This document shows, in pieces, positions 10,021-64,000 of a stretch of DNA of 64,000 nucleotides. How positions within the stretch are numbered: the first letter of the stretch is position 1; every line of letters starts with the position of its first letter. Below the pieces are notes generated by a model. That model ran no database searches. It was not told the origin of the DNA and worked only from the letters and a program-made list of their open reading frames with translations. A program made the translations under genes and the position numbers. The stretch is from an uncultured Planctomycetota bacterium (GTDB lineage Bacteria > Planctomycetota > Planctomycetia > Isosphaerales > Isosphaeraceae): NCBI GenBank assembly GCA_963823665.1, contig CAWGMQ010000007.1:576001-640000 (forward strand). Reading direction: 5' to 3'.

Positions 10021-10281
10021 AAGAAAAGGGGGTTCGGTGCGTGATGAAATTCCCGCCAGTTTTGAGCTGTGCCGAGCGTGGGACGGGTCTGGAACATGGG
10101 GAGCGTGAGTTCTCACCCGTCGGGGGAAGGGAACACGGAGCGGGACGGTGGCGTTATACTCTTTGTGCCTCAAGATTTACGTACTGCTTCAGGGTGCTTC
10201 GGCGAGCGATCGGACGGGGGTCCAAGACATCGAGGAAGATGAGACTTTTTCAGGCTCTGGAGTCCCATTTAGTCCCATTTA
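10021..10281 (-). repeat. Dispersed ~265 bp non-coding repeat, copy A (inverted relative to 49697..49965)
   Basis: Exact 21-mer 10073..10093 = reverse complement of 49896..49916; exact 15-mer 10151..10165 = reverse complement of 49823..49837; colinear similarity throughout. Confidence 0.85.
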
Positions 10282-21146: not shown

Positions 21147-21240
21147 AGCACTGGCACGGCGAGTGCCACACATCCAACTCTTCCCGAGGGCGGCACACGG
21201 AGTCTGCCGGCTACGCCAGAACGCTGGCGAGTGCCACCCA
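21147..21240. repeat. Cluster of REP-like palindromes between convergent genes
   Basis: CACTGGCACGGCGAGTGCCAC; GTAG-tagged GTAGCCGGCAGACTCCGTGTGCCGCC on minus strand (21189..21214); CTGGCGAGTGCCAC. Confidence 0.6.
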
Positions 21241-21293
21241 TCCAACACTTTGAGCGGTGAGTTAGCAAAGACCGCCTCCCATTCTATCCTATT

Positions 21294-39426: not shown

Positions 39427-39674
39427 TAGTACGCCGCCCCCACCCGGTCGACAGGCATCGCTCCTCCGCGTCCCTCACGTCCCTGCTTCCGACACGAATG
39501 ATCGCTGTCGCCCATCAGCCGCCAGCGTAACCCGGAGCCCGCTCTCATGGCAAGCGAACCACTCATATACCATCCATCCATTCTTGCATTGAATTATAGC
39601 TTCCCGCGTCGCGAATCTCTAGCGGATTCTAGCTCCGCCTTTCAGCCCGGCGTCCCCCCCGCACGTCGGAGCCG

Positions 39675-39835
39675 CCGCTCGAATCGCTACCGCCGTGCCG
39701 GATAGTCGCCTTTTGCTCCGCGAAAGTGCATCCCCTCTTGAATCCCAAGCGTCGTGCCGCATAGTCGCCTTTCGCCCCGCGAAAGTGCGTCCCCGCTCCT
39801 CGCAGCGACCGCTCGAATCGCTACCGTTGTGCCGG
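39675..39835. repeat. Two GTCGCCTTT(T/C)GC(T/C)CCGCGAAAGTGC REP-like units between a duplicated 27-bp gene end
   Basis: Units at ~39704 and ~39763; CCGCTCGAATCGCTACCGnnGTGCCGG at 39675 and 39809. Confidence 0.7.
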
Positions 39836-49696: not shown

Positions 49697-49965
49697 GTGG
49701 ATGGGACAAAATGGGACAAAATGGGACGATTACCCTGAAAAAAGTCTCATTTTGCTCGCTGTCATGAACGCCGGGCGACGGCTGGTTGGAAGGCCCTGAA
49801 GCAGCATATAAATCCTGAGAGGCAAAGAGTATAACGCGACGAGTCCCGCTCCACGATTCCCCGGCCCGACAGGTGAAAACTCACCTTCACCGCGGTCCAG
49901 ACCCGTCCCACGCTCGCGCAGCACAAAACTCGACAGCTTTTCGCCGCGCACCGTTCCCCCTTTCC
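49697..49965 (+). repeat. Dispersed ~265 bp non-coding repeat, copy B
   Basis: Colinear with the reverse complement of 10021..10281; begins with ATGGGACAAA tandem units. Confidence 0.85.
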
Positions 49966-50374: not shown

Positions 50375-50519
50375 TAGCCCGGCGTGTCACCGCCGGGAGC
50401 AGACCAATGCCACCCAAACAACCCGAGCCCCGCAAGGGGCGACATCGTATAGCCCGGCGTGTCAACGCCGGGGAAACAACCGACGAATCCAAACCACCCG
50501 AGCCCCGAATCGGGCGACA
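50375..50519. repeat. Two 75-bp tandem units of paired hairpins (REP/BIME-like)
   Basis: TAGCCCGGCGTGTCA(C/A)CGCCGGG at 50375 and 50450, each followed by a CCCGAGCCCCG...GGGCGACA hairpin. Confidence 0.8.
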
Positions 50520-50569
50520 CCCGAAACCCTAACGTTTTAACGCCCGCGGAGCTCGCCCCAAAGGGATGT

Positions 50570-54297: not shown

Positions 54298-54543
54298 ATG
54301 GAATCCGTCGGGACGTTCGAAGCCAAGACCCACCTGACTCGCCTGCTTGAGCGCGTCGCGCGGGGGGAGCGGATTGTCATCACCAACCGTGGGAAGCCGG
54401 TGGCGATGCTCGTCCCGCCAGAGGCAACCGGGCGGGCCGACGCGGGGGAGGTCGGCCGCGCGATGCTCGCCTACCGCGACCGCGCCGGACGGCGGCTCGG
54501 CGGGACGTTCCGGGAGTTGGCACACGAGGGGCACCGGTACTGA
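54298..54543 (+). CDS. Phd/YefM-family antitoxin
   Basis: VGTFEAKTHLTRLLERVARGERIVITNRGKPVAMLVP; AGGAG RBS. Confidence 0.93.
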   Translation: MESVGTFEAKTHLTRLLERVARGERIVITNRGKPVAMLVPPEATGRADAGEVGRAMLAYRDRAGRRLGGTFRELAHEGHRY

Positions 54544-54561
54544 CGCGGAGGCGGACGAACG

Positions 54562-54996
54562 ATGAGCACGCCCACCGCCACGGACCGGTTCGTCCTCGAC
54601 GGTTCGGTCACGCTCGCGTGGCTCTTCCACGACGAGCAGGATCCGTACGCCGACGCGATCGTGGCCAGGCTCCCTGACATCGAGATGCACGTGCCCCGGC
54701 TCTGGCATCTAGAGGTCGCCAACGTCCTGGTCGTCGGCGAGCGCCGGGGCCGTTGTACGCAGGCCGACACGACGAGCTGGCTCGGCTTCCTCGCCGGGTT
54801 GCCCGTCCTGGTCGACGCAGCGACGGAGGCACAGGCGTGGTCGGTCACGATCAACCTGGCCCGACAGCATGGCCTGACGGAATACGACGCCGCTTACCTG
54901 GAGCTCGCCTTGCGACGGGGGTTGCCCCTGGCGACCCTCGACGCCAAGCTCGAGGCAGTGGCGACGGCTGCCGGGGTGGCGCGCTACCAGCCATGA
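54562..54996 (+). CDS. vapC: VapC PIN-domain toxin
   Basis: FVLDGSVTLAW, LEVANVL, LTEYDAAYLELA, LATLD. Confidence 0.92.
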   Translation: MSTPTATDRFVLDGSVTLAWLFHDEQDPYADAIVARLPDIEMHVPRLWHLEVANVLVVGERRGRCTQADTTSWLGFLAGLPVLVDAATEAQAWSVTINLARQHGLTEYDAAYLELALRRGLPLATLDAKLEAVATAAGVARYQP

Positions 54997-55069
54997 AAGG
55001 GAAAAGGTGCCAGAAAGGGAAAAGGAAAGGGAAAAGGTGCCAGGAACCAATTCGCCCGGACGAGAACGG
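54997..55069 (+). repeat. Tandem GGAAAAGGTGCCAG repeats plus the 5' stub of the module at 61330 and 62549
   Basis: GGAAAAGGTGCCAGGAACCAATTCGCCCGGACGA is shared exactly with the 62570 region. Confidence 0.85.
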
Positions 55070-55685: not shown

Positions 55686-57565
55686 CTAACTTGCCCAGTC
55701 AACCGCCACGTCCAGGGCTGTCCCCTGCGCCCCACCGGTCGGCTGGGAGATCGCCTTGCCTTTCAGGAGCGCATCGACATCCCGCCAAAGGGCCTCCCAT
55801 GCCTTCTGCTCGTCGGCGAAGAGCTTTTTGAGAGCATCCCGCTCACGGATGCCGGCGAGATCGGGGTCAACCTTCCAGTGCCCAAGGTTCTGGACGACGA
55901 CGGGGCGGGCCCGGGGACCTGGGCTTTGAAGGATCTTGCCCCAGTCGGCGAGCTCGGCCGTCAGCCAGTCGCGCGCCTGGTCGCGTAGCCGGCGGCGGGC
56001 GGCCTCGTCCGGCGGTGGGACGTCCTTCGATTGACCCGAGCCAGCCAAGGCGGCGGCGCAAACGGCGTTGTAGCGATGGCGGAGTCCAGGATCTCGCCAG
56101 CCTCCTCGGATCGGCCTCGGGCCTTTAGCGCCCGGCCGAAACAACCCAGATGAAGGCCGTTCCGGGCACGGATGAGGCAGAGCTGGCGAAAGACCTCGAT
56201 CGCCTCGTCCGACTCGCCCCGGTTTTCCAGGGCATGGGCCAGCTCGTGGGCCGTCTCGGGACGGATCGCGCGCGCGGCAGTAAAGTAGCGGATGGCCTCG
56301 TCGGTCCGGTCGACCGCCTCCAGCACGCGGGCCAGGTTGTAATTGACCCAGACGTCGTCCGGGTGCCGGCGCTGTGCGCAGCACCGCCTCGGCCGCCGCG
56401 CGGTCCCCGGCCGTATCCAGGGCCAACCCAGCAGGTTCAGGCTCACGGGGCCGAGCTCGTCGAACCGGGCGTCTTTCGCCAGGGCGATCAGCTCGGCCTC
56501 GGACCCGCAGGCGTCCAGCCGCGCCACGGCGTCGGCGGTTGCGCCCTCGGTCGCCTTGCGGATGATCTCGGTCGCGGCCCGGCCCGTGAACGCCGGCATC
56601 CCGGTGAGGACCTCGCAGAGGATCGATCCCAGCGCGAAGACATCGGCCTGCTCGTCGCCCCGATCGGTCTGGCCCCGCGCCTGCTCGGGGGGCATGTAGC
56701 TCGGCGTGCCCATGATCGAGCCGGCGCGGGAGTGGTCCCGGTCCGAGCCGCTCTGCGCCGTGGTGATCAGGGTCTCCTCGGGCGGCTCCTGGCCCGCCCT
56801 CGCATCGGCGGCGACACCGCCCCGCGGCAGGACCCGCGCCAGGCCCCAGTCCATCACCTGGACCTCGCCGAAGCTGCCGACCATCACGTTGGAGGGCTTG
56901 AGGTCGCGATGGATCACCCCGCGGGTGTGGGAGTAGGCCATTGTCTGCGCGATGGCCGCGAAGATCGACAGGAACCGGGGCAGGTCGTCGGCCGGCCCTG
57001 AGCGGTCCTCGAGCAGGTCGGCGAGTGTCTGCCCTTTCACCAGCTTCATGCTGAAGAACGGCCGGCGGTCGGCGAAGGTGCCCAGCTCGTAGATCGGCAC
57101 CACGCCCGGGTGCTGGAGCTGGCCGCCGATCTGGGCCTCCTCGACGAAGCGGCGGACCAGGTCGGCCTTGTCATGGAGGTCGGCGCGCAGGACCTTGATG
57201 GCGACGTCGCGGCCCAGGTCGGGGTCGCGGCCCTTGAGGACTGCCCCCATGCCGCCGCGGGCGATCTCACCGTCGATGCGGTAGCGGATCGACCGGTCGG
57301 CGTCAGTTGAATCGGGTCGGACGACCGGCCCCGGGGTCTCGCCCGGCGCCGTGTCCCGCAGGAGCACGCGGGGGACGGTACCGATGCTCTGTGCGATGGA
57401 GTCGAGGACGCCGGGGCCGGCCAGCTCGAACGTGCCGGTCGTCTCGTGCGACGCGGGCGACGTGCTGGGGAGCGCGGCCCCCATCAGGCAATTCGGGCAA
57501 AGCCCGCGCGGGGCGTCGGCGGGCAGCGTCGCGCCGCAATCCGGACACGTTCGCTGAGGTTTCAT
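55686..57565 (-). pseudogene. Ser/Thr kinase-TPR gene with internal deletions and frameshifts
   Basis: IARGGMGAV, HRDLKPSN, DWGLA, YMPPEQ; jumps from ELIALAKD straight into TPRs; C-terminus ends shortly after KGKAISQPTG. Confidence 0.8.
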
Positions 57566-60222: not shown

Positions 60223-61330
60223 TCAGGGCTCGTTCCTAGTCCCGTCCGTGGGCTTCGCCAGCTTGGTCCGCCATTCGGCGGCCTTGTCCTTCTTGCCCCA
60301 CTCCTCGTAAAGCCGGATGACACGTTCGCCGCCCTCCGCGAGGCGCGGCATGCCAGGCGGGTGGATCTTGGCCTCGCGCGCCTTCATGCCCTCGTAGCCC
60401 GAGACAATCAGCGGCTCGGCCTCGGCGTACTTCTTCTGGCCCAGCAGGCTGTCGCCGAGCAGGCTGCGGGTGTTGAAGGTGGTCCACTCGTCGGGCTGCA
60501 CCTTCTCGCGGATGGCCAGGCACTCGCGCAGAACGGGCTCGGCCTCGGCCCATTTGCCCTGATGGATGAGGCTCAGGCCCCGTACGGCCATGATGCCGGC
60601 GGTCCTGGGATTGTCAGCCCCGAACCGCTTACGAGCGCCGTCCAGGCCGGCGCGGAACAACGGCTCGGCCTCGGGGCCGCGGCCGGTCTGATCCAGGAGG
60701 TTGGCCAGGTCGAGCGTCAAGTCTAGGGTCAATTCGCCGTCCGATCCCTGTGCCTTGCGGTAGCCCTCGAGCGCCCGGCGAAAGAGTGGTTCGGCCTCGG
60801 TCGGTCGGTCGGCGTTCAGGGCATGAGCGAGGTTGTGGACGATCGCGAGCGTGTTGAGGTGGTCGGGGACCAGCTTCGGCTCGAGCAGCTTGAGGGCCTG
60901 CTCGAACAGTGGGACGGCCTCGCCGGCGCGGCCGATCCGCACGAGGACGGAGGCCAGGTCGAACGTCAAGACGAGGGTCAAGTCGCCGTCCGGTCCCTGC
61001 GCCTTGCGGTAGCCCTCGAGCGCCTGGCGGAACAGCCGCTCGGCCTCGGCCGGCTTGGAAGGTGCCAGCTCGCGGGCCCGCTTGTGGAGGCTGGCGAGTG
61101 CTTCGAGCGTGTCGGGCTTGCCGTCGGGCATGGCAGTCGCAGGGGCGAGAGGCTCCCGCGGAGGCACAGACGGCTTTGACCCGGCCGGAGCCTCGCGTTC
61201 CTGGACCGATGCGGTTCCACTCGGCTTCCTCCCCGTCGGTTGGGAGATCGCCTCGCCCTTCAGGAGCACATCGACGTCCTTCCAGAGTGCCTCCCAGGCC
61301 TTCTGTTCGTCGGCGGGGAGCTTCTTGGAG
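60223..61330 (-). pseudogene. C-terminal TPR (kinesin-light-chain-like) fragment of a Ser/Thr kinase; 5' part replaced by the repeat module
   Basis: EAEPLFRRALE repeats, WTTFNTRSLLG, KYAEAEPLIVSGYEG; the first ~27 codons of ORF 60223..61410 are repeat-derived. Confidence 0.8.
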
Positions 61331-61545
61331 GGGAAAAGGTGCCAGGAACCAATTCGTCCGGACCAGAACGGGTTCCGTAGGGCAATCCGTTTGACGATCG
61401 CGCGATACATGTAAACCCACGTCCAAATGTCGAAAGCGCGATGCTGCTCCGCGAAGGTGCATCCCCGTGCCGCTTCATGCCTCTACTAATCGTGGGGATA
61501 ATGTTCGCGGAATCCGGACCCGGGCGCGATTCCCGCCGCCTTCAC
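61330..61545 (+). repeat. REP-anchored module ending in a degenerate tmRNA-like 3' end, copy 1
   Basis: Colinear with 62568..62784; ends GGACCCGGGCGCGATTCCCGCCGCCTTCA. Confidence 0.85.
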
Positions 61546-61761
61546 TTCTTCGCCGGCCTTGGCACGAGTAACATCCAGACTATGGGCCGGGTCATGGCTC
61601 GCTGCTCGCTGACTTCGTCGAACCGGAGCTCGCCGCGCCGGAGGGTTGCCGACTCGTCGTACCGGTCTCGGCCCCGACGAACTTGAGGCGTGCCCGGCCG
61701 AGGCCGATCTGCGCCACGCTGGTATCCCGCTGGAGAGCCGAGCAGCGCTGGAGTCCCGGCC

Positions 61762-62397
61762 TCAGCCGGTCCTTTGCGACGGCAGGATATCTGACACGGC
61801 GATCAGTCCGAGCTGCTGCCCGTCGATTACGACCGGCACGCACTGCCCCTCCGGAAAGACTTCGGTGGAAAGATAGCCGGCCGGAGCCGGGTCGGTATAG
61901 ACCTCGACCTGGCGATCGCCCAGGTTGACGATCCAGTAAATGGGAATCCTGGCCGGCCCGTACACCTCGGAAGCCAGAGTGCGATCCTCCGCGAGGCTGG
62001 TGTCGGCGACTTCGACGATCAGGGCGATCTCGTTTGGACCCGGTTGGTGATCCTCGTAATCGCGGATCGTCCCTCGCACGACGCACCGATCGGGTTCGGG
62101 TTCGCTATCCCGCCCAGGGAGCCGGACCGGCTTGGCTGCCGCGACATGATATCGATCGCGAGGAATAACCCGGGTCAGCTCCGCCCCGCAGAGTTCGTCG
62201 GCCACCCGATGAGGCGGATTCTGAGTCGTCTTGGCTACCAGGTATCCGTTGATGAGATGGAATTGATTGCGGGACTTCAAGCCGCCTGATTCGACCAGCG
62301 CTTCGTATTCGTCGACGCTCATCCGGTAGAGCCGCGACGGGATCCACCCCGACTGCGACTCTGGAATCGTTTGTTGACTCGGCGCGATCGCGGACAT
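61762..62397 (-). CDS. Uma2 (DUF820) PD-(D/E)XK endonuclease-family protein
   Basis: YRMSVDEYEAL, LINGYLV, SEPEPD, LIVEVADTSL, YWIVNL..RQVEVY. Confidence 0.92.
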   Translation of the reverse strand: MSAIAPSQQTIPESQSGWIPSRLYRMSVDEYEALVESGGLKSRNQFHLINGYLVAKTTQNPPHRVADELCGAELTRVIPRDRYHVAAAKPVRLPGRDSEPEPDRCVVRGTIRDYEDHQPGPNEIALIVEVADTSLAEDRTLASEVYGPARIPIYWIVNLGDRQVEVYTDPAPAGYLSTEVFPEGQCVPVVIDGQQLGLIAVSDILPSQRTG

Positions 62398-62548
62398 GCG
62401 AGCTGATCCTTCCCTTCGGCTGCGGGCGTGATTGGGCACTTTCGCTGCTCACTGCATTGTACTCTGGTAACAGACCCAGTTGAAGCCGCCGCAGCCGGGC
62501 CTCACTGCTCGCTCCCGAAGCGCTGACTCCGTTGTCTGGGTGGCTAGT

Positions 62549-62784
62549 GAGGGGAAAAGGTGCCAGAGGGGAAAAGGTGCCAGGAACCAATTCGCCCGGA
62601 CGACAACGAGTTCCGTAGGGCAATCCGTTTGACAATCGCGCGATACATGTAAATCCCCGTCCAAATGTCGCAAGCGCGATGCCGCTCCGCGAAGGTACAT
62701 CCTCGTCCCTCTTCACACTGCAACTGATCTTGGGGAAAACGTTCGCGGAATCCGGGACGCGGGTGCAATTCCCGCCGCCTCCAC
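62549..62784 (+). repeat. REP-anchored module ending in a tmRNA-like 3' end, copy 2
   Basis: Tandem GAGGGGAAAAGGTGCCA x2, two stems, then GGACGCGGGTGCAATTCCCGCCGCCTCCA. Confidence 0.85.
62755..62783 (+). other. tmRNA (ssrA)-like 3' fragment, possible att-site remnant
   Basis: GGAC + 5-bp T-stem GCGGG/CCCGC + 7-nt loop + acceptor strand CGCCTCC (U70-type) + discriminator A; no matching 5' GGGGGCG strand nearby. Confidence 0.7.
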
Positions 62785-62807
62785 ATCCTATGTTGTAATT
62801 CGTCTGA

Positions 62808-63269
62808 TTATGATGCGTTACGACTACAAGCGGTGCGCGGCGAGACGCCCAGAACCTGGGCACACTCAGAGAGTGTCAAGCCGCCGAAATGTCGTAGCTG
62901 GACGAGCTCAGCAAGTTTTGGCTGGTCGACCGCCAGCCGTGAGAGGGCAATATCGAGTGCTTCGATGTTGGTATCTTCCGGCGTTGTAGCCAGTTGCTCG
63001 GTTTCAAGATCGACGCGGCGCCCGCCTCCTCGCTTGGCGGCGTTCCTGGCGCGGGCGTGGTCGACGAGGATCCGACGCATCGCCTGCGCGGCCGCTTTCA
63101 AGTAGTCGCTGCGCGACGCGAACGACCGCTCGCCGCCGAGCTTCAAAAATACTTCGTGAACAAGAGCCGTGGCGTCGAGGGTATGGCCGGGCTTTTCCGA
63201 TGCGAGCTTCGCCGCCGCGAGCTGGCGGAGTTCGTCGTACACGTACGGAAGGAGTTCCGCGGGGTTCAT
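62808..63269 (-). pseudogene. Planctomycete-type ECF sigma factor (TIGR02999-like), 3'-truncated
   Basis: LLPYVYDELRQLAAAKL, HTLDATALVHE, AMRRILVDHAR, KRGGG; similarity stops at VSPRTA, before the usual W..ARAWL helix. Confidence 0.8.
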
Positions 63270-63277
63270 TTCATCAT

Positions 63278-64000
63278 TCAGTTGGCGGAGGCGATCACTC
63301 GTTGCCAGCGTGCCGGCACGGTGTCCCATGCCGATTGGTAGGTTACTTCCAGAGGCACCATGACGTACAGCTCTGGTGCGAGAAAGAGCGGCATGTCGGG
63401 CAACGCGTCCCCGACGCCGACAGTTTCAATGTAGGCCCTCGTGCAGAGGTCCGCATCGTAAGCGACCATGGTGAGCGGTTTCTCCGGAGGTAGTTCAAAC
63501 GGCTCGTCAGTGAATTGTTCCCAGATCGCTGAGTGAATGCCGTTCGGATCCCGGCGACCGGGAGGAAACGGGTCGAGCAAAAGCAGATGAATCCGTTGCT
63601 CCATCAATTCGCAGGCCTTCTGTACGAACGCTCGGAAGGAGTTGGCATTGTTTTTGTTTCCCGGCGAGACGATTTCGACGATGGCGACAATGTGATCCCC
63701 GCTGACGTGACGGACTGCCACCATGCTTTTCTTGCGCTGTTGGAACTCGCCGGGGAGTTCGGTGTAGTACGTCGTCTTGGGACGTGCCTGAGTCGCGACA
63801 CCCCCGCCGTTGTAAGCCGTGGCGACCGTCCGGTCTTGCAACGTCAAGACATCCGGCCCAAACCCGGCAGCCACTTGCTCAGCAAGGGCATAATAATCGG
63901 GTGGCAGCAACCCTCGGTTCAGCGCGCGTTTGATTTCCGAGATCCACTCGTGGTGGAAATCGTGGTAGATCCCGGCATCCACGCGAGTCCAGTCGTGCAT
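63278..64000 (-). CDS. DUF4058-family protein (PD-(D/E)XK-like); start at the window edge
   Basis: HDWTRVDAGIYHDFHHEW, LPPDYYALAEQ, IVEIVSPGNK, IHLLLLD, LPDMPLFL. Confidence 0.88.
   Translation of the reverse strand: MHDWTRVDAGIYHDFHHEWISEIKRALNRGLLPPDYYALAEQVAAGFGPDVLTLQDRTVATAYNGGGVATQARPKTTYYTELPGEFQQRKKSMVAVRHVSGDHIVAIVEIVSPGNKNNANSFRAFVQKACELMEQRIHLLLLDPFPPGRRDPNGIHSAIWEQFTDEPFELPPEKPLTMVAYDADLCTRAYIETVGVGDALPDMPLFLAPELYVMVPLEVTYQSAWDTVPARWQRVIASAN

Follow-up and report, generated by a model that had tools for sequence, protein, structure and literature searches.

In this study, we asked whether two similar stretches of DNA, which flank a Uma2 nuclease gene in an uncultured Planctomycetota bacterium and end in a piece resembling the 3' end of a tmRNA gene (ssrA), are copies of a mobile element or the remains of something else. 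The window, by which we mean the whole 64,000 nucleotides analysed, corresponds to C7:576001-640000 of a 16.5-Mb genome (G000; 12 contigs, 92% complete), for which copy numbers of repeats and sites were obtained by a genome-wide search together with individually retrieved stretches. An earlier note had suggested that a REP repeat, an arm and the ssrA 3' end move as one piece. On the strength of sequence comparisons we consider a different reading to be reasonably probable, namely that the window contains a decayed island-island attachment junction of ssrA-targeting tyrosine-integrase elements, which was truncated where the repeat lies and then underwent a local duplication; a mobility of its own is most likely lacking in the module.

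The two diverged direct copies around the single Uma2 gene are real and extend over 61328-61548 and 62566-62787, which are 87% identical over 222 nt. They start with the same repeat, as the earlier note had stated (repeat plus extension, 40/43), and the agreement is 78/84 in the middle, 47/60 in the arm and 27/32 in the ssrA piece. The 5' stub noted further upstream was also recovered at 54997-55068 (plus strand); it follows the vapC stop codon directly and is made up of a REP-like repeat and partial tandem copies of it, and its last 40 nt (55029-55068) are in common with the modules. A fourth local copy, longer than this third one, lies at C7:661322, 22.7 kb beyond copy 2. All four copies, within about 30 kb, begin at the same repeat, and their 3' tails measure about 40, 57, 220 and 220 nt. 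Genes are cut at both module ends. On the left, the TPR-repeat 3' remnant of a kinase-type gene (60223-61327, minus strand) is cut at the repeat of copy 1, and 61232-61327 within it is 84% identical to 55735-55830; on the right, an ECF sigma factor gene (62808-63329, minus strand) has lost its 3' end near 62830. No third full copy was found in a search of the genome or in 120 relatives, many of which are incomplete, and among the 121 family genomes the whole unit was found only at the window locus. The module middle matches one of the 120 relatives, via a SnoaL start only, and an exact-pattern scan of a species-genome collection with the module arm returned no stretch, although exact patterns miss diverged copies. 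The search thus yielded only local copies with ragged ends, which is largely the outcome that the earlier note itself had named as speaking against its module, and the module is a patchwork rather than a conserved element. As 62485-62700 recurs without change in a public contig, an assembly error at the left junction of copy 2 is improbable, unless the run behind that contig is the source sample.

Other repeats are present in the window and its surroundings. Inverted repeats at 10073-10250 and 49739-49916 (72-82% complementarity, 39.5 kb apart, close to transposase genes) are probably the ends of related insertion sequences, and further short intergenic repeat pairs with units of 25-59 nt are located at 21158-21250, 39657-39835 and 50414-50544. 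The Phd/YefM antitoxin and PIN toxin (VapBC) pair at 54298-54996 ends directly at the repeat cluster of the third copy, and no ssrA core was found near it. Beyond the window, 6.6 kb past copy 2, a kinase/nSTAND1 block (C7:645397-650261; L038:5397-10261) is 95.7% identical to DNA of G035 and begins at a short tRNA-like 3' piece, which suggests a tDNA scar of another kind within this region.

The repeat that opens the module is located at 61328-61370 in copy 1 (including a local extension) and at 62549-62608 in copy 2, where a partial repeat (62549-62565) precedes the repeat and extension (62566-62608), all on the plus strand. It has 68 genome-wide matches at no more than two mismatches (0 for the reversed control), and the copies viewed have varied and unrelated flanks. 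At one of 11 Y1 transposase loci it flanks the gene on both sides in inverted orientation. Both the dispersal and the inverted flanking of a Y1 gene that characterize RAYT-associated REPs were thus found, and because of the latter the repeat is likely a REP of the RAYT type. The locus in question (C10:639975-640725; L406), with a RAYT-like gene between two inverted copies, is a candidate master locus of the repeat family. Among 20 extra copies viewed, at least 7 are alike for about another 60 nt or more on the 3' side and form a subfamily unrelated to the window's module (L219-L234).

These properties bear on the idea that the repeat anchors a unit copied together with its adjacent DNA, possibly by a Y1 (RAYT-type) transposase, which would in this way seed ssrA-like sites. 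The common start of the four local copies, the Y1 gene between repeat copies and the fact that REP-like motifs also terminate arms at other junction types are in agreement with such copying; however, the tails are ragged, no unlinked copy was found in G000 or the 120 relatives, and the repeat lies within 300 nt upstream of only one of 99 other ssrA-end sites. Copying of this kind could account for the duplication seen locally, though not for the family of sites, and we regard it as improbable. The claim that the repeat, arm and ssrA end travel together is not supported, given the unrelated flanks of the 68 copies and the single co-occurrence in 99 sites; moreover, the full unit is confined to the two adjacent copies and its "arm" is mostly a gene stub, as described below. 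The repeat is incidental to the ssrA junction.

The stub forms the middle of the module (61371-61454 and 62609-62692, minus strand) and comprises the start of a SnoaL-like gene, with the DNA upstream of it and its first codons (an ATG at 62649 in copy 2), truncated at the repeat. Homologues of 62609-62692 are intact at C10:2458832 and in G043 (PF12680), the middle matches gene starts in 50 of 82 SnoaL loci, and neither core nor repeat was present at any of 80 metagenome SnoaL loci. The Uma2 gene between the copies encodes a putative endonuclease (PF05685, E 6e-24; 61762-62439, minus strand, start codon approximate). Homology of this interval to relatives is limited to the coding region and its immediate edges, and none of 24 Uma2-homologue loci has the repeat or a core, which speaks against the module moving as one piece. 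The Uma2 gene is probably a passenger.

The 3' piece is of a different nature. In copy 2, positions 62753-62784 (plus strand) consist of a T-arm and acceptor strand; they agree at 30/31 positions with the end of one host ssrA gene and at 32/32 with those of the other two, a match for which the chance expectation within the window is about 1e-13. Thus the 3' 29-mer of the earlier note does match an ssrA end; the fragment is a true one, belongs to a family of attachment-type junctions and likely represents a recombination core. The statement that both copies stop at a tmRNA-type end holds for copy 2 as regards this identity, whereas copy 1 carries a degenerate fragment (61515-61545, plus strand; 27/32 to copy 2, that is, 5 changes in 32) without the family spacer behind it. 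These are the only two cores in the window, 1.24 kb apart, and no further core was found in C7:556-576 kb or 640-700 kb.

An ssrA-like end might belong to a small RNA gene or a permuted (two-piece) tmRNA. The Rfam permuted-tmRNA model gives a 19-bit match at 62755 (E 1.9), and ARAGORN makes permuted-tmRNA calls at four related sites, but the tags of these calls differ from each other and from the host tag. The check with the Rfam tmRNA model suggested earlier did return a match, at 62732-62786 (E 0.0007), but with 17.9 bits it remains, like the permuted match, far under the gathering score of 47. ARAGORN called no tmRNA or tRNA in the window, the core-plus-spacer strand folds no better than its shuffles (z -0.7 to 0.6), and no sigma-70-type promoter was found. 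We therefore consider an RNA gene highly improbable. A permuted tmRNA and a structured RNA were each rejected, and as a tmRNA gene, standard or permuted, the unit has no acceptor 5' strand, tag frame or score at the model cut-off.

On its right, the homology of copy 2 to other ssrA-end sites continues past the boundary of the earlier note to about 62830. With a matrix built from 23 other sites, the 46 nt that follow the core reach 29.7 bits (copy 1: -58), compared with a null maximum of 13.6 in 42,636 windows and a leave-one-out minimum of 19.0, and this spacer is also the best profile match in the window (E 0.016). It corresponds to the family spacer of a double-core left end (62784-62830, plus strand) that has lost its second core, and at 62830 it is fused to the cut 3' end of the ECF sigma factor gene; contigs of two other sequencing runs carry the same ECF gene with different DNA left of 62830. 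Neither the matrix nor the profiles detected a left arm after copy 1. On the other side of the core, the approximately 60 nt at 61455-61514 and 62693-62752 (plus strand) score -0.8 and -0.2 on an anchored right-arm matrix (null fraction about 0.00035), six arm profiles did not match this stretch in either copy, and in contigs of one run the DNA from 62745 onward is preceded by a typical right arm. Positions 62686-62729 have one further genomic relative (C3:725796, 82%), at which a core-like half follows. From these comparisons the 60 nt are likely a remnant of the family right arm, although this assignment is weakly supported. Measured against the order expected for a chimeric junction (right arm, core, left arm), copy 2 has the core and the left-arm spacer, and its right arm is weak.

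The ssrA-end pattern is present in 110 of 121 family genomes, once in most, and 12 genomes (8.8-16.5 Mb) carry 4-12 such sites each, often as same-strand clusters; 40 stretches around sites were taken from seven of these 12. Most of these sites are without a full ssrA gene upstream, and in a phrog_1 screen of four relatives the matches were rarely within 10 kb of an ssrA-end site; in G043, ssrA fragments lie upstream of a full gene. When arms were sorted by single-linkage BLAST clustering into upstream (U) and downstream (D) types, of which D0 is heterogeneous, the types were found to combine freely at the core in 102 site entries. Orphan cores are preceded most often by the right-arm type U1. 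Among the downstream types, one consists of the 3' end of a tyrosine integrase gene (PF00589) whose frame crosses the core on the opposite strand; several genomes have this integrase intact next to ssrA, and stubs of it stand at orphan sites, one of them on C11 of G000 (residues 307-387, 75% to the G015-type integrase). In G015, a single contig, the frame of this widespread integrase (L172:18539-19837), as in relatives, runs antisense through the ssrA core at the tmRNA 3' end, so that integration would swap the C-terminus of the enzyme, a feature described for Mx8-type integrases, and a matching U1-type right arm and core are located about 115 kb downstream. This interval is a classical island, and based on this pairing the right arms at orphan sites most likely represent the right ends of islands.

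The downstream type seen most often at orphan sites (34 of 102 entries) begins with an approximately 48-nt quasi-palindromic spacer followed by a second T-arm-like core. The spacer, we assume, resembles IHF sites. The period of the two cores is 76 nt in 26 of the 34 and 98-100 nt in six, and the second core has 19 different loops, none of which is the ssrA loop. The left end as a whole is about 390 nt long and terminates at a REP-like motif or at a tRNA-like 3' piece, which we take to be tRNA-Pro. The exact double-core pattern was found as 27 doublets in 12 of 121 genomes and not in viral contigs, though exact patterns miss diverged copies, and no autonomous element with a double-core end was detected in the retrieved stretches or in the five genomes screened for integrases. 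When sites were ascertained by their arms, 6 of 28 had at most one mismatch to the core and 12 of 28 at most two; in this count L323 and L324, which are cut at contig ends, were mis-scored although cores are present there. Arm-ascertained sites thus show graded core decay.

The host genome itself contains three full ssrA genes of 90-93% identity (C10:360462, C10:422392 and C8:2039527; L001, L002, L003), the C8 gene near smpB, and ten ssrA 3' fragments, nine within three mismatches and copy 1. C7 carries no ssrA gene, with 638 kb of this contig upstream of the module, and neither an ssrA gene nor a tyrosine integrase was found within 600 kb of the module on C7; the nearest tyrosine-recombinase matches, among those listed, are at C7:9-11 kb. 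In keeping with the earlier statement that the window has no integrase, family searches for tyrosine and serine recombinases gave no match near it, and neither did two ssrA integrases used as tblastn queries against the window and its flanks at C7:556-576 kb and 640-700 kb; the family searches did, however, miss a divergent C10 integrase, and another very divergent one could escape likewise. Behind one C10 ssrA gene stands a tyrosine-integrase-like gene of 579 aa (phrog_1, E 4e-5); the intact ssrA-linked integrase of this genome, at C10:360975, has a different arm type (D2). The two C10 ssrA genes bracket a 62-kb island-like block, which starts with the divergent integrase missed by PF00589. 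At C8:194336 (L053/L176) and in G042 (L116/L175), an ssrA core is followed about 300 nt on by a sequence that in G042 is called as tRNA-Leu by ARAGORN, and parts of the arm at this site recur inside both neighbouring blocks.

That such junctions delimit cargo blocks in arrays, as the earlier note had supposed, was seen in G000 and in relatives. At C4:2483109-2507692 (L040, L041), a same-strand array of four ssrA-end junctions spaced 5-11 kb starts behind nikR and carries adhesin-like, kinase/ECF and type III CRISPR cargo. The head of this array has no right arm, and no convincing core-like empty site was found at nikR in the same-genus orthologue and 18 other nikR loci, so that this comparison gave no evidence of integration at a secondary site. 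The type III CRISPR cluster of one array unit (RAMP, Csx3, Card1-like) is 97-99% identical to DNA of the same-genus G029.

One may also ask whether the junction still works as part of an integrase-free cassette system. In such a system, an ssrA integrase encoded elsewhere would act in trans to excise and integrate units that have ssrA cores at their boundaries; one of these cassettes would be the 1.24-kb Uma2 interval, with its right end in common with the resident unit. The shuffling of arm types at the core and the 76-nt period kept in 26 of 34 double cores point in this direction. G035 and G026, which belong to two genera, have in common a 1331-nt stretch (95.9% identity) that begins 5 nt ahead of the core and lies behind different upstream DNA (a right arm in G035, an ssrA-like gene in G026); however, the match stops inside a kinase gene and not at a second core. 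Similarly, a 394-nt left end is duplicated within G042 at 99.7% behind two different arms, but whole arrays are common to G025 and G026 at 96% (within one genus), which indicates that blocks are also inherited or moved whole. The intact integrase at C10:360975 could act in trans, but its arm type is D2. For present-day mobility speaks also one right end with its terminal gene that is common to four genomes, with the DNA beyond the core differing in two; against it stand the graded core decay, the missing empty site at the C4 array head and the failure to find any unit with both ends at cores in two contexts. In the window itself, the Uma2 interval starts without a recognizable left arm, the copy 1 core has its five changes, and the 24 Uma2-homologue loci are free of core and repeat. 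We consider this explanation of the junction rather unlikely. A broader version is possible but doubtful: large-genome members of the family may run such a system on ssrA-type cores, with kinases, ECF sigma factors, toxin-antitoxin pairs and a type III CRISPR block as cargo behind a double-core left end (76-nt period, relaxed 7-nt loop), which ssrA-island integrases would mobilize in trans between genera, building arrays away from the tmRNA gene; the window would be a damaged junction and Uma2 a small cassette.

We favour a decayed junction. According to this reading, tyrosine-integrase islands would recombine at the ssrA T-arm and stack in tandem, so that each internal junction would consist of a right arm, an ssrA 3' piece and a left arm. 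The integrases and most of the arm DNA would then be lost, leaving the block at a great distance from all ssrA genes. On the left, a deletion with its end at the repeat may have taken the greater part of a SnoaL-like cargo gene, and on the right a second one may have joined the left-arm spacer to the ECF gene, after which the repeat-to-core stretch would have been duplicated, and copy 1 would have lost its spacer and decayed. The parts and their homologies can be read from the DNA; the order of events is our reconstruction. The reading draws on the autonomous ssrA islands with a U1 right arm, the commonest before orphan cores (G015), the integrase stubs behind orphan cores, including that on C11, the matrix score and profile rank of the copy 2 spacer, the origin of the middle as a SnoaL gene start that elsewhere occurs without core or repeat, the 68 copies of a repeat that flanks a Y1 gene, the genes cut at both module ends and the graded decay of arm-ascertained sites. 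Counting against it are the right-arm scores with six profile misses, and the fact that copy 1 stops a few bases from the core end, where core recombination would also leave a boundary. The perfect core of copy 2, although its arm differs from that of copy 1 at 13/60 positions, could mean selection or recent refreshment. No empty site for the window's junction and no parent element with its exact right end were found. The scar itself most likely stems from a known process, while the junction architecture of the family is apparently undescribed: a full-text literature search yielded no description of detached ssrA-end arrays or of the double core in this group, which, with most subscription papers and supplements outside its scope, is weak evidence of novelty.

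Sites of this type, with no integrase and no nearby full gene, are discarded by island finders by design, and with them a pattern in which a genome may have as many as 12 ssrA-end sites, additional full ssrA genes and a double-core end of stereotyped form. If the sites still recombine, they would help to explain how the 10-16 Mb genomes of the family gain and shuffle signalling and defence cargo; if they no longer do, they are good markers of old island boundaries. The ssrA-end sites provide precise ends for an excision test.

Among known systems, the islands catalogued by Islander are closest in their targets. In that work (PMC4383910), a displaced 3' tmRNA fragment marks the island end, the integrases are of the tyrosine type, and Mx8 and SSV are named as having integrases that extend across attP; tyrosine integrases, displaced ssrA 3' fragments and an attP-spanning integrase, as in the G015 type, are likewise found here. 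For Islander, the full gene must lie within 200 kb of the fragment on one and the same replicon and be correctly configured, and every member of an array must have an integrase. The module has a 3' fragment matching the host gene (32/32), but no full ssrA within 200 kb and no integrase, and in G043 the fragments lie upstream of the full gene. In CIMEs, as described in PMC5704250, the integration genes are lost, attL and attR are kept, and elements stack in tandem with chimeric internal junctions. The CIME tandems described there stay anchored at the target gene, whereas the arrays of this family are often detached from ssrA, recur many times within a genome and in many cases show the double-core left end; matching partner ends, moreover, are missing at the window's junction, which does not retain both attL and attR of one element. 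The module thus fails as an autonomous island and is incomplete as a CIME. REPs of RAYT systems are described in PMC3733652 and PMC6006769 as short intergenic quasi-palindromes in dozens of copies that flank a Y1 HUH transposase gene; the module's repeat, a dispersed quasi-palindrome flanking a Y1 gene, is REP-like, though we do not place it in a named family. Tycheposon islands (10.1101/2020.12.28.424599) carry cargo at tRNA and tmRNA genes with partial copies between, and leave fragmented integrases and partial tRNAs as remnants. They abut the full gene and come from a different phylum, and the likeness lies in the remnants and in the partial gene copies between cargo. By analogy, the pattern described here resembles the known accretion of integrase-less islands, as in CIMEs and tycheposon remnants.
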